Source: Phycisphaerae bacterium (lineage in GTDB: Bacteria > Planctomycetota > Phycisphaerae > UBA1845 > PWPN01). Taken from it: DNA of 64,000 nucleotides. Under the pieces are notes generated by a model. The model ran no database searches. It worked only from the letters and a program-made list of their open reading frames with translations, and had not been told where the DNA came from. The DNA is taken from assembly GCA_012719955.1 (NCBI GenBank), contig JAAXZI010000049.1:12309-76308 (forward strand). Reading direction: 5' to 3'. Both the position numbers and the translations under genes were made by a program. This document shows, piece by piece, positions 2,166 through 61,020 of this stretch (position 1 is its first letter; every line of letters starts with the position of its first letter).

Positions 2166-3365
2166 ATGCACAAGCTATTCGTGACGCGATTTTTATCCGG
2201 CAGGACCATGCGGCGCGGGGCCGCGGTCCCATTGGTGGCAGTTTCATCGGTGGTACTGATCGGGATGGCCGCCCTGGCGATCGACAGCGGCGTTCTGTAC
2301 CAGGCGCGCACGGAGATGCAGGCCACAGCCGACGCGGCCGCGCTGGCCGCGGCGAGTGAACTGGTGGCCAAGCGCACGCAAGGGCATGACCTGGCCGCCG
2401 CTATCACCGCCGCCCGCGAGCGGGCCGTCAATCTCGCCGGGCGGAATCAAATCATGGGCCGGGCCCCGATCCTGGAACCCAACCTGGCCAACACGCCCGA
2501 CGGTGACGTGGTGGTGGGATATCTCAGCAATCCTGACGATCTGCGCCAACCGCTGTCGTTTGCTGAAACCGACCACTACAACACGATTCTGGTCCGCGTC
2601 CGGCGCAATGAGATCCGCAACGGCCCTGTGGATCTCTTCTTCGCCAACATCTTCGGAATCGGGTCCGCCAACATGGAAGCCCAGGCGGCGGCCATCGCAG
2701 AACAAGGCGCGCTGGGCTTCAAGGCCCCGGACAGCAGCAAGGGCCAGTTGTCCCCCCTGCTGCCCTTGTCACTGCACATCGATGCCTGGCGGAATCTGCT
2801 GGCCGGATCGGTCACCAATGGCGACAACTATCGCTATGACCCGGACACGAAAAGGGTCACCAGCGGCAGCGACGGCGTCTATGAACTGAACATCTATCCC
2901 GGCTCGGGCACGGACAGCCAGAAGCTCACCCCGGGCAATTTCGGAACCGTGGACATCGGAAACCCGAACAACAGCACCGCGGACCTGTCCCGCCAGATCC
3001 GTTACGGCCCGAACGCCGCGGACTTCGCCTACTTCGGCGGCAAGCTCGAACTGGGGCCGGACGGCACCGTGCAGCTTAACGGCGACACCGGCATCAGCGC
3101 GGGCATCAAGGACGACCTTGAGGCGATCAAAGGCCAGCCGCGGATCATTCCTCTGTTCAACCGCGTAACCGGCAACGGCAACAACAGTATGTTCACCGTC
3201 GTGGGCTTCGCGGGCATCCGTATCGTGAACGTCAGACTGACCGGCTCCATGAAAACCAAGGAAGTCATGATTCAGCCGGCCTTTGTCTGCGACGAAACCG
3301 TGATCAGCGGCGGTACCCAGCAGGGCGAGAGTTTCATTTATGGGCCGGTCCGGCTGGTGAGATAA
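2166..3365 (+). CDS. TadG-like (Flp pilus assembly TadE/G-like N-terminal domain) protein
   Basis: The N-terminus RRGAAVPLVAVSSVVLIGMAALAIDSGVLYQARTEMQATADAAALAAA matches the Tad_N/TadG architecture. The ATG at 2166 was chosen over the upstream ORF start at 2088. Confidence 0.6.
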   Translation: MHKLFVTRFLSGRTMRRGAAVPLVAVSSVVLIGMAALAIDSGVLYQARTEMQATADAAALAAASELVAKRTQGHDLAAAITAARERAVNLAGRNQIMGRAPILEPNLANTPDGDVVVGYLSNPDDLRQPLSFAETDHYNTILVRVRRNEIRNGPVDLFFANIFGIGSANMEAQAAAIAEQGALGFKAPDSSKGQLSPLLPLSLHIDAWRNLLAGSVTNGDNYRYDPDTKRVTSGSDGVYELNIYPGSGTDSQKLTPGNFGTVDIGNPNNSTADLSRQIRYGPNAADFAYFGGKLELGPDGTVQLNGDTGISAGIKDDLEAIKGQPRIIPLFNRVTGNGNNSMFTVVGFAGIRIVNVRLTGSMKTKEVMIQPAFVCDETVISGGTQQGESFIYGPVRLVR

Positions 3366-3385
3366 CACCACAACGCAAGGTCTCG

Positions 3386-3450
3386 TGGTGGCCGGGCTAC
3401 GTATCGGCCGTTCTACGGGAAAAACGGCCGGTACGGAGCCCGGCCGCTAC
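3386..3450. repeat. family-A palindromic repeat, inverted dimer (REPIN-like)
   Basis: gtggtggccgggctacgtatcggccgttc (decayed, reverse orientation) faces acggccggtacggagcccggccgctac (3424-3450). Each unit is a hairpin: cggccgg, an 8-nt loop, ccggccg. Confidence 0.8.
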
Positions 3451-3505
3451 AGAAAATGGCCTACTTTGCGCTGTAGTCGATAGGCACCTTGGGAGGTTCC
3501 TTAAG

Positions 3506-3543
3506 ACAGAGCGGCCGGCTGTGTGGCCGGCCACTCTGTTTTG
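3506..3543 (+). terminator. intrinsic terminator after the TadG-like gene
   Basis: acagagcggccggc / tgtgt / ggccggccactctgt forms a 13-bp stem with one mismatch, followed by tttt. Confidence 0.6.
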
Positions 3544-3579
3544 GGGATCGTGGAGCGCGCCCAGGGTCTCAAAGCGGGG

Positions 3580-4602
3580 CTACTCGGCTTTCCGGAAGAG
3601 ATCCAGGAACCGATCCTCATACTGGCTGAAGACGCCCAGACGATCGAGTTCCTGCTTGAGCTCGAAGGCCTTGGAGCGATCGTGGCGGGCCCGCTCAAAG
3701 AACGCCTCAATACGCCGCTGGGTACGAGGATCGAGAGGGGGCGCAGACTCCGACTGCTCGGCTTGTCCGCTGGAATCGGGCTCGGTTTCCTCTTCCTCTT
3801 CCTGGCTCTCCGCCTCCTCGAGGTCCTGCTTCCACTCCTCCCCGGGCTCGCCGACGGCCTCCCCGGCCGCATGACTCATGCGCTCCAGAAGCTGTTTCAG
3901 GTTCTGCTCCACCAGCTTGGCCTGACGGTCCAGTTCGGTGAAGTCGATGTCGATGCCCGCGATCTCGGTGAAGACCGACAAGACGGCCTTGGCCGCTCTT
4001 GGATTGGGAACGCCGACCGCAAAGAAGGGCAACTCGCCCAGCAGACAGACGCCGCGCATGCCGCGTTCCGCCCCCGCGGCCAGCAGGACGCCGTTCAATC
4101 CGCTGATCTGGCCTTCCTTCATGACCTCAACGTTGGCCCGCCGGGCCATCCGGAGCGTGGGCACATCGGTGGCGACGGCAAACACCTTCGGGCGGGTGCC
4201 AAGTTGAAGCTGGGTGGCCATGGCCGCGAAGGTAAAGAAATTCCGCACGCCGCGGTGTACGGCATAGTCCACCAGTTGCTGGCACAGGTCATAACCGCGG
4301 ATGGCCGGCTGGGCCTCGCCGATAAACAGCAGCAGGTCGCGCTGTCCACGGGGATCGCGCCATTCGAAAAAGCGGCTCCGCGGCAGCCGGGCGGGAGCAG
4401 CCAGCCCATTGTTCACCTGCACGTCTTGAACCTCGAAAAAATCCTTGGCAGGCAGTTCCCACGCCTCCTGGGCCTCAAGCTGCTGGGCCAGGTAAGTACC
4501 GGCCAGCAGGGCCACGCTTCCCATCCCGGGCCAGACCGCTACCAACCAGGGATCCCGCAAATCATTGGTGTCCGCCATCGGTCGCACCTCCTCTCGCCGC
4601 AA
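3580..4602 (-). CDS. PAC2 (proteasome assembly chaperone 2-like) family protein with acidic C-terminal tail
   Basis: DPWLVAVWPGMGSVALLAGTYL ... ISGLNGVLLAAGAERGMRGVCLLGELP resembles the PAC2 family. The true start may be the MADTND methionine at 4578. Confidence 0.55.
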   Translation of the reverse strand: MRREEVRPMADTNDLRDPWLVAVWPGMGSVALLAGTYLAQQLEAQEAWELPAKDFFEVQDVQVNNGLAAPARLPRSRFFEWRDPRGQRDLLLFIGEAQPAIRGYDLCQQLVDYAVHRGVRNFFTFAAMATQLQLGTRPKVFAVATDVPTLRMARRANVEVMKEGQISGLNGVLLAAGAERGMRGVCLLGELPFFAVGVPNPRAAKAVLSVFTEIAGIDIDFTELDRQAKLVEQNLKQLLERMSHAAGEAVGEPGEEWKQDLEEAESQEEEEETEPDSSGQAEQSESAPPLDPRTQRRIEAFFERARHDRSKAFELKQELDRLGVFSQYEDRFLDLFRKAE

Positions 4603-4828
4603 GCCGCCAAGACGCCTCTAATCATAGACCTGCATTGGGCTCCGGACTGATTTTCGCAATTACTTTCCGGGTATGCCAGATTTATCGCCCAACCCCTGCT
4701 AACCTCTCCACAAGTCAACCAACAACAGGTATTTATCCGCCCCATCCGGTACCTGCCGGTACGGTGAGCGGTCCGATCCGGCCGGATCGCGTGGACGGGT
4801 CAGCCACCCGCCGCTATAGTGATGCCCC

Positions 4829-9375: not shown

Positions 9376-9394
9376 GGCAGGCATCTTGCCTGTC
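9376..9394. repeat. family-B-like hairpin (variant stem)
   Basis: ggcaggca tct tgcctgtc has the same architecture as the B consensus ggcgggca gga tgcccgcc. Confidence 0.55.
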
Positions 9395-9464: not shown

Positions 9465-9756
9465 AATTTTGTGTTGCGTGCAGCGCGACGGGCCCGGTAG
9501 GCCTGCTGCCAGGCGTTGGCCCGGGCCCGTTGGTCCCGGCGTCGGGCCATGATCGCCAGCGTCTCGGCATCCGGCGGGATCAATCCGCTGGTGATGTAGC
9601 TGATCATGGCCCAGTCATAGCTGCTGGGCCGGTCCTGAATGATCAGAGCCATCAGCAGCGTACCAATGACCGCCGCACCGATCCGACGGAGTAATGGCAG
9701 TGAGAACCGAACCCGTCCCGTTTTCGCTCCCGGGACGAAGGCCACGGCTGAACGGT

Positions 9757-9831
9757 GGCCGCTGACCGCTGACCGCTGATCGCTCGTCTTAATGACCGCT
9801 TGCGGATTGAGGACGCGTGCGCTATCCCGCG
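9757..9831. repeat. 75-nt repeat, copy 1 (starts with a GCTGAYC heptamer array)
   Basis: ggccgctgaccgctgaccgctgatcgctcgtcttaatgaccgcttgcggattgaggacgcgtgcgctatcccgcg. By hand alignment it matches 11707-11781 at 67 of 75 positions. Confidence 0.85.
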
Positions 9832-9980
9832 TAGCCGGCTTCGGAAAGCCGCCAGCCTGACAAAATGCTGACTGTCTCCCGCCGCTCCTCGGAAAATGAA
9901 GCATACTGTCATTGCTCATTGACAAGTGCATACACGCCCGGACCTGAATTCTGGTGTGCTCCGTTGCTCCCCCGGGGGGC

Positions 9981-10044
9981 GCTGATCGCTGATCGCCGAT
10001 TGACCGCTCCGCCGCCAGTTCTCAGTCCTCAGTTCTCAGTTTCC
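9981..10044. repeat. heptamer arrays (GCTGATC units, then AGTTCTC units)
   Basis: gctgatcgctgatcgccgattgaccgc is followed by cagttctcagtcctcagttctcagtttcc. The second array carries TCA every 7 nt at 10022, 10029 and 10036, which read as TGA on the minus strand. Confidence 0.8.
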
Positions 10045-10297
10045 CCAGGGCCCGCCTTCCCCGTGTCGTCGCCTCTCGCCCCTCATCCCTCGTCTTTTAT
10101 CTCTTGTCCGTCTGTCCCGTGTCCCCCCTTCCCTCTCTCCCTGTATCTCTCTGTCCCTCCTTCCCTCTGCCTCGATTCCGTTGACAATTCCGGGCCTTCT
10201 CCTTAGAAGCTCTGCAGTGGGCCAGGTACTTTGCGATGCAAATCACGTGCTTTGACGTAAGCGGCATCTGCGCACACCACTGAATGGAGGCCACGCC

Positions 10298-19656: not shown

Positions 19657-19718
19657 CCCTCCATCCCTGCGGGCGAGTGTGGCAATTCTTTGTGGCGGGG
19701 TAACGCGGGGGCCGGGAG

Positions 19719-19761
19719 GGCGTGCATCTTGCACGCCTTTGAGGCGGGCAGGATGCCCGCC
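19719..19761. repeat. two adjacent family-B hairpins
   Basis: ggcgtgca tct tgcacgcc (19719-19737), then ggcgggca gga tgcccgcc (19743-19761). Confidence 0.8.
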
Positions 19762-19898
19762 CCCCTGATGCGCCCGGCCGGTTCACCACAATCCTTTGCC
19801 AGACCCCTCCGGGCAACTTCTCAAGCCCCATGCTACCTGTTTTTCGGACCCTGTGCCAGGAACGGACCCAATGGATGCCGGGAATGGAGCAAAAAGGT

Positions 19899-19926: not shown

Positions 19927-20325
19927 TGGTCCTTTAGGCCATGGCTGGCACGAACCTTGACCGCTCCAAAAATGCCGCGCAATTCCCGCTTGCCTGCCGG
20001 CGGAATGTATCTCATGCTTGGGGTGCAACACGCGACCTGAGTTCGAGGCAGGCATCGCGGGGTCGGCTGGGGAAAGTCGCGGAGGCCGTACCCTGTGGGG
20101 CTTGTCCAAAGGAGGGTTAAGAAGACAGGCAGGGTACCCAGGGGGAGCGGCATCGGCCCGCGTGCTGCAGCCCGCTCGTTGGTCGGACCTGGCGGCCTTC
20201 CTCGGATGGGATGAGACCGCTCTCGGCCGCACGGGCCTGTTCTCCGGCCAACCAGCGACGGTTCACTACATCCCGCGTCCGTCCCCCTGGGCCCTGGCCT
20301 GCTTACCTGCACACCACGGTATCGG

Positions 20326-20445
20326 AAGGTGAGAAGGTGCGAACGTGGGAAAGTGAGAACGTGGGCAGGTGCGGATGTGGGAAGGTGTGCACGTGGGAAA
20401 AACGAGAAAGGGGGAAAGCGAGGAAGGGAGAAAAACACGTCGGCT
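20326..20445. repeat. purine-rich low-complexity array (GTGAGAA/GTGGGAA-like units)
   Basis: aaggtgagaaggtgcgaacgtgggaaagtgagaacgtgggcaggtgcggatgtgggaaggtgtgcacgtgggaaaaacgagaaagggggaaagcgaggaagggagaaaaac. Confidence 0.7.
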
Positions 20446-20810: not shown

Positions 20811-22434
20811 CTATGCCCGTGGCAGGTCGCCTTCGCCCTTCGTCGGCAGCAGCGTGCAGCCCATCAGATGCTGATCGATGCTCCGGGCTGCCTCGCGGCC
20901 TTCGCTGATGGCCCAGACCACCAGTGACTGGCCCCGGCGCATGTCGCCGCAGGCGAAGACGTTGGGCCGGCTGGTGCGGTAATTCTCGTCCGTCTTGACG
21001 TTGCCGCGCTCGTCGAGCTCCACGCCGAGTTGGGCAATGACGCCGTCGGGTTCCGGCCCCACGAAACCCATGGCCAGCAGCACGAGATCCGCCGGCCAGA
21101 GCTTTTCGCTGCCGGGGATTTCCCGCATCTGCGGGCGGGAGCCGTTGCTCTGCGTCCACTCGACCTCCACCGTCTCCAGGCCGGTCACCCGGCCGGCCTC
21201 GCCGATGAAGCGGCGGGTGAGAATGCTCCAGTAGCGCTGGCAGCCTTCCTCATGTGAGCTGCTGGTGCGCAGCTTCATGGGCCAGTACGGCCAGGGCTGA
21301 TTCGCCGGGCGGCCCTCGGGCGGCTTGGGCAGCAGCTCGAATTGCGTCACGCTCCGGGCGCCCTGACGGTTGGACGTGCCCACGCAGTCGGAGCCGGTGT
21401 CGCCGCCGCCGATGATGATCACATGCTTGTCAGTAGCGAGAATGTCGCCCTTGCCCTGGCTGAACCACCAACGGCCGGCAGGCGCACCTGCATCAACACC
21501 AGCGGAACGGTTGGTATGGAGATCGGTTGCTACAGCGTCAGAACGGCCGGTACAAAGCCCGGCCGCTACAGTGCCGGAACGGTCGGCACAGAGCCCGGCC
21601 GCTACAGCGGCGGCTGCGTGGGCGATCTTATCGCCGGCCACGCGCTTGTTCTGCTGGGGCAGGAACTCCATCGCGAAGTGAATGCCCTCCAGCTCGCGGC
21701 CGGGGATGGGCAGGTCGCGCGGTTTGGTGGCCCCGCCGGCCAGCACAATCGCGTCAAACTCCCGGTTGAGTTCGTCGGCGGTGATATCAAAGCCCACGTT
21801 CACGCCCGGCCGGAAGGTGACGCCCTCGGCCTCCATGATGGCCAAGCGCCGGTCGAGCACCCGTTTTTCCAGTTTAAAATCGGGGATGCCGTAACGCAGC
21901 AGCCCGCCGATGCGGTCGGCCCGCTCGAAGACCGTCACCCAGTGGCCGGCGCGGTTGAGCTGGTCGGCGGCGGCCAGGCCGGCCGGGCCGGAACCCACGA
22001 TGGCGATCTTCCTGCCCGTGCGTTTCACCGGCGGGTTGGGTTTGATCCAGCCTTCCTCAAAGGCCCGCTCGATGATCGAATACTCGATCTGCTTGATGGT
22101 CACCGGCGGCTCATTGATGCCCAGCACGCACGACTCTTCGCAGGGCGCGGGGCACACTCGGCCAGTAAATTCGGGGAAGTTGTTGGTCGAGTGCAGGAAA
22201 TCGATCGCCCGCCGCCAGTCGCCCAGATAAACGAGGTCGTTCCAGTCCGGGATCAGGTTGCCCAGCGGGCAGCCGGTGTGGCAGAACGGCACGCCACAGT
22301 CCATGCACCGGGCCCCCTGCTGCTGAAGCTGGACCACGGGCAACGGAATATGGAACTCACGGTAGTGCTTCCGCCGCTCCTCGACAGGCAGGTCCCGGAA
22401 TTCCTGCCGGGGAATCTCCTTGAATCCGGTAGGC

Positions 22435-22442
<8 letters not shown>
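20811..22442 (-). CDS. gltD: glutamate synthase (NADPH) small subunit, with a repeat-derived insertion
   Basis: The motifs are [19 protein letters not shown]...[21 protein letters not shown] and [21 protein letters not shown]. The GTG at 22442 gives the canonical (M)GKPTGF N-terminus and overlaps the gltB stop by 8 nt. Confidence 0.93.
21505..21612. repeat. family-A repeat, 3 x 36 nt tandem, intragenic and in frame
   Basis: The three units are gaacggttggtatggagatcggttgctacagcgtca, gaacggccggtacaaagcccggccgctacagtgccg and gaacggtcggcacagagcccggccgctacagcggcg. Confidence 0.85.
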
Positions 22443-27263
<4,821 letters not shown>

Positions 27264-27267
<4 letters not shown>

Positions 27268-47690: not shown

Positions 47691-49409
47691 TCAGTGTTTG
47701 AAGTGCCTTGTGCCGGTGAGGATCATGGCCACGTTGGCGGCGTCGGCGACGGCGATGGTCTCGGCGTCGCGGTTGCTGCCGCCGGGGTGGATGATGGCCG
47801 TGATGCCGGCGCCGATGAGCTTCTGCGGGCCGTCGGGGACGGGGAAGAAGGCGTCCCCCGCGGCGACCGCGCCCTGGAGCTTGTCGGCGTGGCCGTTCTC
47901 GCGGGCAAGTTGAATCGCCAGGTCGCAGCTCTTCACGCGCGACATCTGGCCGGCGCCGTTGCCCAAGAGCATGCCGTCGCGACAGAGGGTGATCGCGTTG
48001 CTTTTGGTGTGCTTGCAGACCAGCCAGGCGAACCGCAAATCCGCCATTTCAGATTCCGTAGGCTGACGCTTGGTGACGACTTTCCACTGCTCTTCGTTGA
48101 GGCCAAGGAGGTCGCGGGTCTGGACGAGCATGCCGCCGGTGATTTTCTTGTAGTCCAGCTCGCTGGGGTGCGGCGGAGTGTCCATCGGGCCGACGGCCAG
48201 CAGCCGGCACTCCTTGCCCCACTTGCGTTTTTCGGTGGGCGTGGTGATCAGTTCGATGGCGTCATCGTCGAAGCTGGGCGCAATCCACACGTCGAGCTTG
48301 AAAAACGCCGCCCCGGCCGCCCTGCCCCAGTTCGCAAATGAGTGCATCACCGTGTCGGCGATCTCGCGGGTAACGGGGAAATTCATGCAGAGGACGCCAC
48401 CAGCCGCCGCGATCGGATCGCCCAGGTAGGCCCGGCGGTAGGTGTCGATGGGGTCATCACCGATCGCGCAGCCGCAGGCGTTGGTGTGTTTGATAAACGC
48501 GACGGCATATTGACCCAGCCCGGCACGGGCCAGCTCCTTCACCAGGGACAGGGCCGAATCGCCATCTACGTAATTATTGAACGACAACTCGGAGTTGGCG
48601 TGACAGGTTGCCCGCATCAGGCTTGCTTCCGCCTGGCCTCGGGGATTCTCGGATAAGCCAAAAATGGCCGCCGTCAGATGAGGATTCTCGCCGTACCTCA
48701 ACGCAGAGCGTTTGGTGAGCACAAGCGGCAGGCAAGCCGAATCCAGCCCGTTGCCGCCGGTGCCCAATCCCTGCTTCGATGTTCCGGGGGCATTCTTTTC
48801 AGCAGCCAGCCTGAACTGGTCGGACAAGTACGCACTGATTGAGCTGTCGTAGCCGACGGTGCGTACGAAGACTCGCGATGCCAACAGCACTCGGGTGTGC
48901 GGCTTGACATCCCCTGTCTCGCGCAGCTCGTTCAGAACGATTGGACCCAACGAAGACTCGGGAATAACCACAACATGCTTATGATTCTTCGCCGCCGCGC
49001 GGAGCATGCACGGGCCGCCGATGTCGATCATTTCGATGGCTTGTTCGAAGGTGCAATTCGGGTCGGCGACCGTCTTCTCGAACGGGTAGAGGTTCACCAC
49101 CACCATGTCGATGGGCTTGATGCCGTGCTGTTCGAGCTGGCGCATGTGCCCGGGGTTGTCGCGGTCGGCGAGGATGGCCGCGTGAATCTTGGGGTGCAGG
49201 GTCTTGACCCGGCCATCGAGCATCTCCGGGAAGCCGGTGACCTCTTCGACCATGGTGACGGGGACGCCGGCCTCCTTGAGGTGTTTGGCCGTGCCGCCGG
49301 TGCTGATGATCTCGATGCCGAACTCGTCCACCAGCGCCCGGGCGAAATCGGCAATGCCGGTCTTGTCGTAAACAGCAATTAACGCGCGTTTGATCTTGAT
49401 GTCGCTCAT
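47691..49409 (-). CDS. purH: bifunctional AICAR transformylase / IMP cyclohydrolase
   Basis: The ATG at 49409 gives MSDIKIKRALIAVYDKTGIADFARAL...STGGTAKHLKEAGVPV...GFPEMLDGRVKTLHPKIHA. The C-terminus has GGSNRD. Confidence 0.92.
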   Translation of the reverse strand: MSDIKIKRALIAVYDKTGIADFARALVDEFGIEIISTGGTAKHLKEAGVPVTMVEEVTGFPEMLDGRVKTLHPKIHAAILADRDNPGHMRQLEQHGIKPIDMVVVNLYPFEKTVADPNCTFEQAIEMIDIGGPCMLRAAAKNHKHVVVIPESSLGPIVLNELRETGDVKPHTRVLLASRVFVRTVGYDSSISAYLSDQFRLAAEKNAPGTSKQGLGTGGNGLDSACLPLVLTKRSALRYGENPHLTAAIFGLSENPRGQAEASLMRATCHANSELSFNNYVDGDSALSLVKELARAGLGQYAVAFIKHTNACGCAIGDDPIDTYRRAYLGDPIAAAGGVLCMNFPVTREIADTVMHSFANWGRAAGAAFFKLDVWIAPSFDDDAIELITTPTEKRKWGKECRLLAVGPMDTPPHPSELDYKKITGGMLVQTRDLLGLNEEQWKVVTKRQPTESEMADLRFAWLVCKHTKSNAITLCRDGMLLGNGAGQMSRVKSCDLAIQLARENGHADKLQGAVAAGDAFFPVPDGPQKLIGAGITAIIHPGGSNRDAETIAVADAANVAMILTGTRHFKH

Positions 49410-49586
49410 GGGGCGTATCATAGCCACTGGACGGCAAGAGGAAAATGCGGGCGCCGGGACCGGTGTGCTGAACCGAGGCGAATCCGTGTATGCCAAGCTC
49501 TGTGAGCAGTACTGAATGCGGGCGACGTTACGACCGCAAGCCAGTGCTGACACAGCAGTGGCACAGAGGCCGTTTCCCGGCGTCGA

Positions 49587-49613
49587 ACGGCCGGTACGGA
49601 GCCCGGCCGCTAC
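49587..49613. repeat. family-A repeat
   Basis: acggccggtacggagcccggccgctac. Confidence 0.85.
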
Positions 49614-49634
49614 ATCTTGAACAGTTCTTGCCCC

Positions 49635-51011
49635 TCAGAGGCGGGCAGGATGCCCGCCCCCCTTGATATGGTGCAGCCACGCCTGAACGGTAATGCCTAC
49701 CAGCACCAGCCCCGCCGACACCGCGTAGGGCACCGGCAGCCCGAACCGGTCGGCCAGCATCCCGCCCATGGCCGGACCGGCGATACCCATCACCCCCACC
49801 ACCGCCTCGTTGATGGACACGTACCGGGCGGCACGGGTCGGATGGACCAGGGCGTGGTACACGTAGTAGAAGTAAAACGAACCGGCATACACCCCGAAGC
49901 ACACCGCCGCCGTCCAGAACAGCGCCACGTCCCGCCCCACCGCAAATAAGACCATCCCCAGCACGCCGAACAGCCCAAAACCGATCACCGGCCAAGGGCG
50001 GTACATCCAGGTCCGGCTCCAACCCAACAGAAAGCCCACAATCGCCTGCGTTCCACTCAGAAGCAGGAACATCGTGCCCTGGGAAGGCTTGGACAGGCTG
50101 AAGGCCTCAGCACTGACGGGAAAATGGCTGCGGATCATGGTGGCGATCATGCAGCCCAGGCCACCGAACACCCACGCCATCCAGGCCAGGTCGGGCAGAG
50201 AGCCGGCCGCCTTCTCCGAGGGGCGGGTAGCCCGCCCGCCTTGCTCTCCACTGGCACAACAAGTCAGTTCCTGCGGTGATTGCGTGGGGGGCGCCGCCGG
50301 CAGAGGTATAGGGCCCGTGTCGTCAGAAGGCGGACAGGATGTCCGCCCCCCGCTGCCATCCAAAGGCGGGCAGGATGCCCGCCCTCCGATGTCTTCCGAA
50401 GGTGGGCAGGATGTCTGCCCTCCTGGTGGGGCCTCGGCGTGGTGCTTCAGCAGAAATATCCCTATCGCCATCATCGCCGAGGCTGCCGCGTTGAACAGGT
50501 GGCACACCTGCCAGCCGTAAGCCCACAGAAAACCGGCAATAAACGGCCCCAGGGCAAAGCCGCTGCTCCACGAAAACACGTACAATCCTGACGAGCGGGC
50601 CACGCCCTTGTTCTGCCCCTCGTCCACCAGTTTCATAAACACCTGGAACGGCGTGAAGAAAAAGGCGGTCGCGACCCCCTGAATCGCGATGATCACATAC
50701 ATCGCCCGCATGCCCGGCCAGCGCACGTAAGACAGGGCCAGCAGCGCCGTGGCCGTACAGGAAGCCACCAGGATCAACCCGACGTTTCGCCGGTTGACCA
50801 CCTGCCCCGCCCCCAGTGATGACACGAGGTAGACCCCCGCCCAGATGGCGAACAGGCCGCCGGTGGCCATCGATGATCCCGTCATCTCCGCCAGGCGCAC
50901 CGCGCAGACGAACAGAACCGCCGACAATATCACATCCGTAATGCCCGCGAAGGAGTAGACCGTAAGACGAATCAGCGTACGGTCCCAATCTCGCGACAAC
51001 CTGACGGTCAC
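49635..51011 (-). CDS. MFS transporter with a repeat-derived insertion in the central loop
   Basis: There are about 12 hydrophobic segments. The start overlaps the upstream stop (ATGA). The central loop contains GGQTSCPPSEDI/GGRASCPPLDGS/GGRTSCPPSDDT. Confidence 0.8.
   Translation of the reverse strand: MTVRLSRDWDRTLIRLTVYSFAGITDVILSAVLFVCAVRLAEMTGSSMATGGLFAIWAGVYLVSSLGAGQVVNRRNVGLILVASCTATALLALSYVRWPGMRAMYVIIAIQGVATAFFFTPFQVFMKLVDEGQNKGVARSSGLYVFSWSSGFALGPFIAGFLWAYGWQVCHLFNAAASAMMAIGIFLLKHHAEAPPGGQTSCPPSEDIGGRASCPPLDGSGGRTSCPPSDDTGPIPLPAAPPTQSPQELTCCASGEQGGRATRPSEKAAGSLPDLAWMAWVFGGLGCMIATMIRSHFPVSAEAFSLSKPSQGTMFLLLSGTQAIVGFLLGWSRTWMYRPWPVIGFGLFGVLGMVLFAVGRDVALFWTAAVCFGVYAGSFYFYYVYHALVHPTRAARYVSINEAVVGVMGIAGPAMGGMLADRFGLPVPYAVSAGLVLVGITVQAWLHHIKGGGHPARL
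49640..49658. repeat. family-B hairpin forming the last codons of the MFS gene
   Basis: ggcgggca gga tgcccgcc. On the minus strand it reads GGGHPARL followed by the stop. Confidence 0.85.
50329..50419. repeat. family-B hairpin, three copies at exact 36-nt spacing, intragenic and in frame
   Basis: The copies are ggcggacaggatgtccgcc (50329), ggcgggcaggatgcccgcc (50365) and ggtgggcaggatgtctgcc (50401). Confidence 0.85.
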
Positions 51012-52261
51012 GGAACATCCCCTTGGAAAGCCAACTGGTATACGCCCCCGGGCGTGAGTTTTATCGCCACCGGCGGGCCAAGCGGCGTCTGCCCGTCTTC
51101 ATCGAACACCTCTATATGCCCCTTGATACCTGTGTTCCCCTCCAGCCGGAGCACCTGCCGGTCCGGCCCCAGCGCACCGGCCGGCTCATGGCGTTTGCCT
51201 GAGGCGTCGGTGAATACAACCTTCTTTTGCAGCCACCGGGCGAAGATGCGGTTGCGGTCCAGCCCCGGCGTGGCCCCCGCCCCGTACAGGAAGCCGAGGA
51301 CCCGGTCTTCGCGCGTCACCCAGCCGAGGGCGACGATGTACTGATCCGCCGCGCCGAGGCTTCGGCCCAGCTCGCGCTCGGGGCTGAACTTCATGCCGTC
51401 CTGCGAGAGCGTGTACCAGAGCCGGTCGTTGTTGGCATGGAGGCCCATCAGGTAGACAACCTGGCCGTCTTTCTCGAATTTCCTGATGTCGTTCACCATG
51501 TGGTGCGAGGCCAGGCATGTCCCGTCATAGCGGAAGCGTTTGCCGTCCGTCGAGCTGGCCCGGCGGACCTGGCCCGGCTGGGTGAAGCTGCCGAAGTACA
51601 GCCGGTACTGCCCATCCTCGAACAGCAGGACATTCATCCCGTTGATATCCGCCTCGGCAAACGAGGGCCAGTCTTCCATCTCGATGCGGTCCGCGGCACG
51701 GGCCGGGTGCGGCGCGGGCGTGCCGTTCCAGGTGGTCCCGTCCGGACTGATGAACATCGCCGGCTTGTTCAGGCCTTTCGCATCCGGGTAAACCGTGCAG
51801 ACCATGCGGAAGCCGCCATCCGGCAACCGGAGGGCATTCACGTTGCAGACATGGACGAAATCCCCGTGCTCAATCTCCGTCCGCCGGTCGGAGAAGTCGA
51901 GGAAATCACGGGTAAACACGCTGTAGATGCGATCATTGCCGGTCGGCACACCATCCCAGGCGCCGTAGAACACACGCCAGCCGTCGGGCATGGCCACCGC
52001 CGAGGGTGCGTAGATATTCCGAAAGACCCCGGCCCACCGGGGGGCCAGCAAAGGCGAGCGAACGTCCGCCAGGATGTGTAACCGGCCGCTTTCCCAATGT
52101 TTAGGATCGAACGAACCCGCCGAAACGCCATGTATTTCCACGGTGCCCAATTCGGCCTGACCAGCCATCGGGCGAACCTGCACCTGGCCAGCGCCAACCC
52201 GAACTGACAACAGCATCAGACCGCACACCAGGCCTCGGGCAATCCAACGTGACTGGCTCAT
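51008..52261 (-). CDS. secreted hypothetical protein (possibly a beta-propeller glycosidase-like fold)
   Basis: The ATG at 52261 gives the signal peptide MSQSRWIARGLVCGLMLLSVRVGAGQ. It is translationally coupled to the MFS gene. The fold guess rests only on repeated hydrophobic/Gly-Trp patterns. Confidence 0.5.
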   Translation of the reverse strand: MSQSRWIARGLVCGLMLLSVRVGAGQVQVRPMAGQAELGTVEIHGVSAGSFDPKHWESGRLHILADVRSPLLAPRWAGVFRNIYAPSAVAMPDGWRVFYGAWDGVPTGNDRIYSVFTRDFLDFSDRRTEIEHGDFVHVCNVNALRLPDGGFRMVCTVYPDAKGLNKPAMFISPDGTTWNGTPAPHPARAADRIEMEDWPSFAEADINGMNVLLFEDGQYRLYFGSFTQPGQVRRASSTDGKRFRYDGTCLASHHMVNDIRKFEKDGQVVYLMGLHANNDRLWYTLSQDGMKFSPERELGRSLGAADQYIVALGWVTREDRVLGFLYGAGATPGLDRNRIFARWLQKKVVFTDASGKRHEPAGALGPDRQVLRLEGNTGIKGHIEVFDEDGQTPLGPPVAIKLTPGGVYQLAFQGDVP

Positions 52262-52529
52262 TTCGCACCCTCTGCTCCAGAAGACCAAATCCCCGTCAGG
52301 AAAGGCAGCAGTTTACGAGTCTGGCCCGGAAACTCAATGACTTGACATCCTCAGCCGCAGACTCTTGAATGGAACCGCCGTCGGGTGCGTTTCCGCCCAT
52401 CATAATCTCGCGGGTCAATGGCCAAACCACCGGCCAATCCCCCCGCGCCGGGGCGGCGAACGGACGCTCCGGAAAGTTACGGCATGGTTAGGACGGGAAA
52501 CGGCACTAAAATGGGTGGCTCAAGCGCAC

Positions 52530-60006: not shown

Positions 60007-60939
60007 ATGAAAATCGCGATCATCGGTTCCGGTTCTGTCGGTTGCCTGTATGGGGCCCGGCTCGCGCGTGGCGGACACGACGTGCGGTTTCTGATGCGCC
60101 GCGACCTCGAGGCGGTTCGCCGTAACGGCCTCACCATCAAAAGCTGCGACGGTGACTTCCACCTCCGCCCGGCCGTCTTCGGTAAGTCCGAAGAGATCGG
60201 CCCGGTGGACCTGGTCCTCTGCGCCCTGAAGGCCACGGCGATGGACGTTGCCGAGCAACTCGTCCGCCCCTGCGTGGGGCCACACACGCGGATCGTGGCC
60301 CTCATGAACGGCCTGGGGATCGAAGAACAATTCGCAGGCTGGTTCGGCCCCGAACGCATCTTCGGCGGGCTGGCCTTCGTGTGCATCAATCGCGGCGAGC
60401 CCGGCGTCGTTCATCACCTGGCCTACGGCCGGGTCGCCATCGGCCACCTGGCGGGCAACCACGAGCAATCCCGCGAGATCGCCCGCCTCTTCGCCGACGC
60501 CGGCTTCGAGACCAGCGTTCCGCCGTCGCTGCGCCAGGCCCGCTGGGAAAAGCTCATGTGGAACATCCCGTTCAGCACGCTGTGCATTACGGCCGGCGCG
60601 GTCACCACGCGCGAAGTGATGGGCGATCCCGGCCTCAGAATGCTCGCCGAACGGCTGATCGTGGAAACCGGCACGGCCGGCAACGCCGACGGCTGCGAGA
60701 TCGACATCCCCGCCACCCTCGCGAAAATGATGGCCAACACCGCGACCATGGGCGCTTACCGTCCCTCCATGCTGGTAGACTATCAGAACAGGCTTCCGCT
60801 GGAGGTCGAGGCGATTCTGGGCGAACCGGTCCGCCGGGCGAACGCGCTCGGCGTGCCCGTGCCCGTCATGGAGACGCAGTACCGATTGACGGCGTTCCTG
60901 GATCTGCTGAATAGAGGCGAAGTGAGAGGTGAGAAGTGA
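60007..60939 (+). CDS. panE: 2-dehydropantoate 2-reductase
   Basis: The ATG at 60007 gives MKIAIIGSGSVGCLYGARLARGGHDV. SMLVDYQNRLPLEVEAILG is also present. The last 8 codons (RGEVRGEK) lie inside a heptamer array. Confidence 0.85.
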   Translation: MKIAIIGSGSVGCLYGARLARGGHDVRFLMRRDLEAVRRNGLTIKSCDGDFHLRPAVFGKSEEIGPVDLVLCALKATAMDVAEQLVRPCVGPHTRIVALMNGLGIEEQFAGWFGPERIFGGLAFVCINRGEPGVVHHLAYGRVAIGHLAGNHEQSREIARLFADAGFETSVPPSLRQARWEKLMWNIPFSTLCITAGAVTTREVMGDPGLRMLAERLIVETGTAGNADGCEIDIPATLAKMMANTATMGAYRPSMLVDYQNRLPLEVEAILGEPVRRANALGVPVPVMETQYRLTAFLDLLNRGEVRGEK

Positions 60940-61020
60940 GAAGTGAGACGTGAGAACTGAGAGCTGTGTGAAGATTTCGCTCCCTTCAGTTCTCAGTTCG
61001 CAGTTCTCAGTTCTCAGTTT
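60919..61020. repeat. heptamer-array inverted repeat (GTGAGAA units facing TTCTCAG units)
   Basis: gaagtgagaggtgagaagtgagaagtgagacgtgagaactgagagctg, a spacer, then cttcagttctcagttcgcagttctcagttctcagttt. TGA occurs at 60923, 60930, 60937, 60944, 60951 and 60958. Confidence 0.85.

Follow-up and report, generated by a model that had tools for sequence, protein, structure and literature searches.

Tandem REP-type hairpins translated in frame within the predicted central linker of an MFS transporter from a Phycisphaerae bacterium

The DNA considered here (the window) is a 64,000-nucleotide stretch of contig JAAXZI010000049.1 from a Phycisphaerae bacterium, and our subject is a transporter gene of the major facilitator superfamily (MFS) that carries, within its coding sequence, several copies of a short GC hairpin which we call family B. 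The gene is located at 49635..51011 on the minus strand, with its stop codon at 49635-49637, and this open reading frame (ORF) of 458 aa is the sole long coding-like frame spanning the region in which three of the hairpins form an array. Its product matches the Pfam profile MFS_1 (E=5.4e-21). The family B core is 19 nt long, with an 8-bp stem and a 3-nt loop, and can be translated without meeting a stop codon in all six reading frames, yielding GGQDAR, AGRMPA, RAGCP, GGHPAR, AGILPA, and RASCP.

The array lies at 50312..50423 (minus) and encodes residues 197-232. It consists of three 36-nt units arranged head-to-tail, each made up of a 17-nt spacer and a 19-nt hairpin, and is closed by a CTCC tag. 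In gene order, the hairpins are found on the minus strand at 50401..50419 (unit 1, a degenerate copy, GGTGGGCAGGATGTCTGCC, encoding GGQTSCPP), 50365..50383 (unit 2, the exact consensus, GGCGGGCAGGATGCCCGCC, encoding GGRASCPP), and 50329..50347 (unit 3, GGCGGACAGGATGTCCGCC, with a compensated GGAC/GTCC stem, encoding GGRTSCPP). Read on the mRNA strand, each is preceded by a tetranucleotide tag, which is GGAG for units 1 and 2 (50420-50423 and 50384-50387) and GGGG for unit 3 (50348-50351), and the translation across the array is ...PPGGQTSCPPSEDIGGRASCPPLDGSGGRTSCPPSDDTGP... Tandem Repeats Finder reports the region 50318-50423 with a period of 36, 2.9 copies, 80% matches, 0 indels, and a score of 135. 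The two changes in unit 3, G6>A and C14>T, affect both partners of one base pair (G-C to A-T), while unit 1 has three unpaired C>T changes. On the plus strand these give G·T pairs; on the mRNA strand they amount to C·A or A·C mismatches, and there this copy no longer makes a good hairpin. Contigs assembled from two independent runs, SRR8925736 and SRR25909834, agree base for base across the array, which is therefore no assembly artefact.

A fourth copy is found at the 3' end of the same gene. This exact B copy at 49640..49658 (minus; GGGG tag at 49659-49662) encodes GGHPARL, the last 7 codons, and the stop codon follows 2 nt on, such that the C-terminus reads ...HHIKGGGHPARL, i.e., ...KGGGHPARL-stop. 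One element is here read in two frames within one gene, as (G)RASCP(P) in the loop copies and as GGHPAR(L) in the terminal copy, and on the mRNA strand all four copies are oriented alike.

The protein agrees with an MFS transporter in its MFS_1 profile as well as in its predicted 6 + 6 helices with a central linker. An AlphaFold model generated with 18 homologues as input contains 12 helices and has a mean pLDDT (predicted local distance difference test) of 80.9 and a pTM (predicted template modeling score) of 0.80. In the model, helix 6 comprises residues 167-193 and helix 7 residues 275-303; residues 194-274 between them are without structure, with pLDDT <50 at 207-272, and the last helix ends at residue 451. 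According to this prediction, array residues 197-232 fall in the disordered central linker between transmembrane helices 6 and 7 (TM6-TM7), a segment that is cytoplasmic in MFS proteins, and the terminal B copy (residues 452-458) falls in the tail past helix 12. A preliminary description of the locus, made from the sequence alone, had named an MFS transporter as the host, placed the array in its central loop, noted the paired stem change and the openness of the core in all six frames, and assigned the last codons to a further copy, all of which agrees with the above, the loop position by way of the model. Its array of three hairpins holds as to positions, exact 36-nt spacing, and reading frame, but not as to the copy at 50401, which is not an intact hairpin.

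MFS homologues numbered 89, mostly 380-410 aa long, from Phycisphaerae or Planctomycetota metagenomes. The GGxxSCPP units are absent from all 17 orthologues that were aligned, and no translated B motif was found in the homologues outside the source species. The PDLAWM motif that opens helix 7 starts at residue 272 here versus ~207 elsewhere (median of 50 homologues), i.e., the linker is ~65 residues above its usual length. The closest relative (P0002; 69% protein identity, 442 aa) is encoded in a sister species (GCA_020049655.1, contig JAHZTS010041170.1, referred to as L109; ~75% nucleotide identity), in which the locus is syntenic, with an unknown gene, the MFS gene, and purH. In the DNA alignment, GGTGGGCGTGTGGCCCGCT followed by TGTGA in L109 stands opposite GGCGGGCATCCTGCCCGCC followed by TCTGA in the window, with 13 of 19 bases matching, which represents a decayed homologue of the terminal copy at the same site. 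A further hairpin in the loop of the window gene, GGGCGGGTAGCCCGCCC at 50221..50237 (minus), has the B stem with another loop sequence and encodes ..GGRATRP..; its counterpart in L109 is decayed as well (GGCGGGCGAGAGACCCCTCC). The three-unit array is absent from L109, or at most one eroded unit is left. The decayed homologues show that the terminal copy and the hairpin at 50221 are older than the split of the two species and that the array expanded afterwards. Variation in the number of units was not found within the 90% protein cluster, whose full-length members (five variants on at least 52 contigs) are all 458 aa long.

Repetitive extragenic palindromic (REP) sequences, which are GC-rich imperfect palindromes of ~20-40 nt, typically occur in more than 100 dispersed copies per genome, mostly extragenic and often just downstream of ORFs. 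They are defined by guide tetranucleotides at the foot of the hairpin (PMC3733652, PMC6006769), and in the GTAG super-family these tags are GTAG or the degenerate GYAG, GYRG, GTRG, GTMG, and GTGG (Di Nocera et al. 2013, PMC3733652). The 19-nt core of family B is a short GC-rich palindrome for which stem-loops are predicted in the RNA fold, and every intact copy in the window has a GGAG or GGGG tag immediately on its 5' side (on the strand reading CATCCTG). With its GC hairpin, its GGAG/GGGG 5' tag, and a short T-rich tail, ~25 nt in total, family B is a REP-class element. The tags in the window are not those of the GTAG super-family; since the core is common to GTAG- and GTGG-tagged copies in other phyla, it is shared with that super-family, and the local tag lies outside its definition. 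A literature search for the B core sequence found no paper containing it.

With up to 3 mismatches allowed, the core has 10 matches over both strands of the window, at 7 distinct sites, versus 0.18 expected, and a count of 10 was reached in none of 100 shuffles. In total, 8 B-like copies are present at 4 loci in the 64 kb. An intergenic inverted doublet at 19715..19765, composed of GGAG-GGCGTGCATCTTGCACGCC, TTTGA, and GGCGGGCAGGATGCCCGCC-CCCC, resembles a REP doublet forming a hairpin (REPIN) or a bacterial interspersed mosaic element (BIME); its hairpins (19719-19761, beginning at 19719 and 19743) are 5 nt apart and inverted, an arrangement that the head-to-tail MFS array does not have. The copy at 19719 carries a compensated stem of its own, GTGC/GCAC. 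A B-like hairpin at 9376..9394 (plus), ggggGGCAGGCATCTTGCCTGTC, is intergenic, tagged GGGG, and degenerate; it has 4 mismatches to the core and is weak when taken alone.

The core was also searched for in a sample of one genome per species, for which all counts refer to the matches listed and are lower bounds. The exact 19-mer is present in more than 108 stretches of other genomes, from phyla that include Planctomycetota, Verrucomicrobiota, Acidobacteriota, Chloroflexota, Cyanobacteria, and others. Tags are non-random among 113 copies (GTGG 17, GGGG 16, GTAG 9 with a further 4 GTAGC, GTCG 7, and GTCC 7). The majority of these copies are not in coding-like ORFs; 33 of the 113 are, and several of the 33 resemble chance matches within ordinary coding sequence or are located in an ORF extension ahead of the probable true start. 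The tags are lineage-specific across the stretches labeled L001-L108, with GTGG in Cyanobacteria and several other groups, GGGG in many Planctomycetota, and GTCC/GTCG in Terriglobia, where the 19-nt hairpin is paired with a second hairpin, GCCGGCGGGACGCCGGCGCTAC.

One Planctomycetia metagenome-assembled genome (MAG), JACPPG01, contains at least 14 exact copies, 13 of 14 with GGGG. In a stretch of this genome (L010), the GGAC/GTCC stem variant is found between the same flanks that it has in the window, so the covariation seen in unit 3 is a property of the family and not a local accident. Coding reads of B in JACPPG01 occur in an ALO-type FAD oxidase (GGRASCSPS and GGQDARPP) and in an OEP protein (GGQDARP). 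At the isolated copies in this genome, conservation ends at the tag on one side and after 2-3 nt on the other.

A tie to a transposase was found in a verrucomicrobial contig of a Terrimicrobiaceae member (L090, JBGTGQ010000079.1). It contains a gene of the Y1_Tnp family (Pfam, 29.1 bits with a cut-off of 23, E=1.2e-6), which is flanked by inverted B-type hairpins, GGAG-GGCGGCCATCCTGGCCGCC upstream and GGCGGGCAGGATGCCCGCC-CTCC downstream. A REPtron, in which a RayT gene is enclosed by two inverted copies of one REP, was thus found for B in this other genome only. The L090 protein has thousands of homologues, many of which the Joint Genome Institute (JGI) calls "REP element-mobilizing transposase RayT," and each of the four homologues that were fetched (L112, L114, L115, and L117) is flanked by GC hairpins of another sequence, tagged GGAG/CTCC. 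On the evidence of the L090 flanks and these tagged homologues, B is a REP belonging to a GGAG/GGGG-tagged group that is associated with the L090-type RayT clade. As a peculiarity, the L090 RayT ORF (2780-3490) has no stop of its own and continues via the downstream B hairpin (GGQDARPP) into a cytochrome-c-like lipoprotein gene, and its likely start codon lies before the upstream hairpin, which is translated RRAAILAA. The sister species L109 carries a RayT-like gene too, flanked by a different hairpin family. Of the RayT probes used in these searches, the first served as bait only, its matches being checked with Pfam. In the organism studied here, B would likewise have been mobilized by RayT. 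The presence of an identical hairpin in several phyla may reflect convergence on a hairpin preferred by RayT or else horizontal spread.

From these results, we propose the following origin of the array, which, taken as a whole, we consider likely. Hairpins of the B kind are those that flank genes for RayT (Y1/HUH) transposases, and they are thought to be spread by RayT on single-stranded DNA. One such copy would have arrived in the DNA encoding the disordered TM6-TM7 loop of the MFS transporter, where the gene could stay intact because the core is free of stop codons in all frames and the loop tolerates added length. A block of 36 bp, i.e., the element plus ~10 bp of neighboring DNA, or 12 codons, would then have been reiterated head-to-tail to three, probably via slippage or unequal recombination, and since 36 bp is a multiple of three, the frame would have been preserved. 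The result would be 36 added residues rich in Gly, Pro, Ser, and Cys, with a second, older B copy making up the final seven codons of the gene. What we observed directly is the anatomy of the array, the further copies of B, the lack of the array in orthologues, its location in the loop, the homology of the spacers, and the L090 RayT flanked by B-type hairpins; mobilization by a RayT in this genome, the mechanism of duplication, and neutrality are inferred. We take the encoded peptides to be, most likely, passengers of an element at the level of DNA that is tolerated where the protein is disordered, and not a selected protein feature. The interpretation offered in the preliminary description, i.e., a hairpin element that has remodeled this gene, is supported and refined by this origin, in that the element is now seen as REP-class and RayT-associated, the array as a tandem duplication, and the C-terminal copy as older than the split from the sister species. 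Two observations that could have spoken against it turned out otherwise, as further B copies exist (19719 and 19743 in the window, and many in other genomes) and the loop sequence is not shared by the aligned orthologues. The variation in unit number between related genomes that it had proposed to look for was not seen, the number being three in all strains sampled.

The spacers bear most directly on how the three units came about. The three 17-nt spacers (S0, S1, and S2: GGCCCGTGTCGTCAGAA, CCCCGCTGCCATCCAAA, and CTCCGATGTCTTCCGAA) are 53-71% identical in pairwise comparisons versus 84-89% for the hairpins of the array, and nothing of them but the CTCC tag recurs beyond the last unit. Since the homology of the spacers includes ~10 central bases that are not conserved at isolated copies, and all units have the same orientation, a 36-bp block appears to have been duplicated in tandem. 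If, instead, a longer mobile unit of ~30-36 nt had inserted independently three times at neighboring targets, it would be natural for the hairpins to be more alike than the spacers and for the units to differ in stem variant, as GGAC/GTCC is also dispersed in another genome; the 3' flanks of isolated copies and the spacers also have a weak GAT motif in common. We nevertheless consider independent insertions unlikely. They would have to produce exact 36-nt spacing and one orientation for all three units, even though REP dimers resulting from transposition are typically inverted, and they leave unexplained the ~10 spacer nt that match between units (5-7 of 10) and are absent beside isolated copies both in the window and in JACPPG01. 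In addition, REP clusters are, as a published norm, reiterated in tandem together with their flanking DNA (PMC3733652).

An alternative that retains the REP origin holds that the hairpins are kept for a function in the mRNA, such that the stems in the loop slow the ribosome or shape decay, and the terminal B copy guards the 3' end along with a REP of a second family, A, which is situated at 49588..49614 (minus), 21 nt past the stop codon of the MFS gene, and on the mRNA strand is made up of a GTAGC tag and GGCCGGGCTCCGTACCGGCC. Stabilization of transcripts and effects on translation are among the published roles of REPs (PMC6006769). The predicted fold of 50300-50440(-) has an energy of -75.4 kcal/mol (z=-4.46), the hairpins are conserved above the spacers, two copies are exact while their L109 homologues have decayed, and all four copies are co-oriented on the mRNA strand. 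On the other hand, unit 1 contains three mismatches on that very strand, the sister species lost the hairpins and kept the gene, and ~50 orthologues manage without such a structure. Taken as a whole, the 3' region has no unusual stability (z=-1.49), no intrinsic terminator was found at the 3' hairpins, which lack a T-run, and a search of Rfam at E<=1 returned only a sub-threshold match (17 bits versus a gathering score of 37.8). We therefore judge a role in the mRNA to be improbable as the reason for which the hairpins are kept. An argument from RNA wobble pairs was also considered and rejected, as the G·U pairs that result from the C>T changes lie on the antisense strand in the degenerate unit of the window but on the sense strand in L109, and the changes therefore look like plain transitions.

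Were the peptides themselves under selection, e.g., with Cys-Pro-Pro serving metal binding, redox sensing, or partner docking, and the palindrome incidental, one would expect what is in fact seen in the retention of SCPP in 3/3 units and in a unit number constant within the species, across at least 52 contigs. The same 19-mer, however, is also intergenic (19743), is read in a shifted frame at the C-terminus (GGHPAR versus RASCP), and occurs in unrelated genes and frames of JACPPG01 (the ALO-type oxidase and the OEP protein). Two of the three differences in unit 1 are non-synonymous (R>Q and A>T), the motif is found in no orthologue, and the segment is predicted to be disordered. From the non-synonymous differences and the reads in other frames in other genes, we conclude that the peptides are by-products of a tolerated DNA element, and we consider a selected protein feature very unlikely. 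That chance palindromes or an assembly or chimera artefact produced the array is barely conceivable, as only the high GC content (~63%) speaks for it, against 10 matches versus 0.18 expected, an identical array in two assemblies of Sequence Read Archive (SRA) data, and five 458-aa protein variants on at least 52 contigs.

Several observations fit less well with the origin from a REP landing and a neutral tandem duplication. No RayT was found in the 64-kb window, either by Pfam scans of 23 ORFs or by tblastn with three RayT probes. The tag is GGAG/GGGG and not the canonical GT[AG]G, and 5 of the 8 B-like copies in the window are inside one gene, with 3 intergenic, which is atypical for extragenic REPs, if in a small sample. 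The number of units is fixed at three in the sampled strains, with no ongoing dynamics visible, and two copies in the MFS gene are still the exact consensus though those of the sister species have decayed. The better-kept hairpins and the two exact copies could mean selection or homogenization and not pure neutrality. A stronger version of this idea, which we regard as doubtful, is that the intragenic B hairpins are actively maintained, by RayT-dependent re-copying or gene conversion or else as a selected mRNA structure, both exactly between the two halves of the transporter, where it would cause a co-translational pause, and at the 3' end of the gene.

Among known systems, the REP/BIME/REPIN elements with RayT (TnpA-REP) of E. 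coli, Pseudomonas, and Stenotrophomonas share with family B the GC hairpin, a tetranucleotide at the 5' foot, dispersed copies, inverted doublets, and clusters, as well as a RayT gene between inverted copies (for B-type hairpins, in L090). In contrast to these canonical systems, B has GGAG/GGGG in place of GT[AG]G, most of its copies in the window are intragenic, and the window contains no RayT. A close parallel to the MFS gene is found in Opitutus terrae, of the Planctomycetes-Verrucomicrobia-Chlamydiae (PVC) group, the species in which GTAG-type REPs are most numerous inside genes (Di Nocera et al. 2013, PMC3733652). In that and other species, REPs occur in frame as singletons, dimers, and clusters, with 7-8 aa per REP and clusters of 43-82 aa, and can form the last 7 residues of a protein, e.g., residues 642-648 of 648 in Oter_1839 (PMC3733652). 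The MFS gene resembles these cases in being in frame and clustered, with a C-terminal example and co-duplicated flanking DNA, and differs from them in its REP family and tag, its host (a Phycisphaerae MAG), and the head-to-tail array of three units in an MFS loop; no MFS protein is in the supplementary list of REP-bearing proteins of PMC3733652.

Two further kinds of palindromic repeats may be compared with the array. Among the Rickettsia palindromic elements (RPEs), RPE-1 is much longer than B (~100-150 bp), and RPEs are not known to be related to B in sequence or to occur in 36-nt tandem arrays. Like B, they are palindromes inserted in frame within protein-coding genes, at surface or loop sites where the protein tolerates them (Ogata et al. 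2000, as cited in PMC3733652), and RPE-4 and RPE-6 have been identified with GTAG-type repeats (PMC3733652). A CRISPR array also has palindromic repeats and may have a regular 36-nt period, but this candidate was rejected, as the spacers here are homologous to one another (53-71%), the units number no more than three and belong to an intact ORF, and single copies are dispersed elsewhere.

As REPs in frame, in clusters, and at C-termini have already been published, the B array is a further case of a described phenomenon and reveals no new mechanism. What is new is the REP family with its tag, the host lineage, and the array in an MFS linker. The locus provides a well-anchored example of REP hairpins absorbed into a protein, with an insertion that is visible against ~50 orthologues and with two events, one in a linker predicted to be disordered and one in a C-terminal tail, whose ages are bracketed via the sister species. 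With it, the range of intragenic REPs comes to include Phycisphaerae as well as a GGAG/GGGG hairpin family associated with a RayT clade of very large size. For annotation, it is a warning that low-complexity inserts rich in Gly/Pro/Arg/Cys in PVC proteins (GGQDARP, GRMPAP, RASCPP, etc.) are translated REPs and not protein motifs.

In-frame REP arrays are not confined to the MFS gene. Family A (GTAGC plus GGCCGGGCTCCGTACCGGCC) forms tandem arrays in frame in both glutamate synthase subunits, with periods of 24 nt and 36 nt. In gltB (22435-27267, minus), the array at 25736-25813 corresponds to residues ~485-511, between the GATase_2 and central domains, and in gltD (20811-22466, minus), the array at 21529-21609 corresponds to residues ~286-313. 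In-frame REP arrays are thus recurrent in the source genome. In L109, the purH ORF (2284-4782) contains an in-frame insert of ~290 aa (3130-3960) between ...LVKELTRA and YAVAFIKH..., which is a RayT-like Y1 transposase, with an HVHLLL motif, the Y in CEYMRTNPGRAGL, and matches to Pfam Y1_Tnp (E=0.0067) and by tblastn (2e-11). Ahead of it stands GTGG-CACCGGTCTCCAACCGGTG, and after it come about ten 24-nt repeats, CACCGGTTGGAAACCGGTG-CCAC, translated HRLETGAT. This insert is a whole REPtron in frame in an essential gene; the purH gene of the window has no RayT insert of this type. If the B hairpins were indeed actively maintained, then together with the gltB and gltD arrays and the RayT in purH, they would describe a lineage in which REP/RayT systems are routinely found inside essential coding sequences.

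Downstream of the MFS gene, the purH ORF of the window (47691-49553, minus) is listed as 620 aa long. Its homology to L109 starts with MSDIKIKRAL at residue 50, so the first 49 codons (49407-49553, minus) are probably an untranslated leader, and with the start moved accordingly, the spacer between MFS and purH that contains the A REP is ~228 nt long. On the other side, a conserved 426-aa gene without a Pfam match (51008-52288, minus) overlaps the start of the MFS gene by 4 nt, and the pairing of the two genes is also kept in L109, L110, and L111. An orthologue of the 426-aa gene in another stretch (L011; ~70% nucleotide identity) has no neighboring MFS gene and has a B copy just upstream; with only this upstream gene present and no adjoining MFS gene, L011 could not be used to date the events. 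Lastly, intergenic short tandem repeats unrelated to families A and B are found at 9747-10168, 20324-20436, and 60919-61019. Their units are the heptamers GCTGACC, CGCTGAT, and CAGTTCT, the octamer GGAAGGTG (x9.5), and GAAGTGA (x6) followed by the near-complement TCAGTTC (x5).

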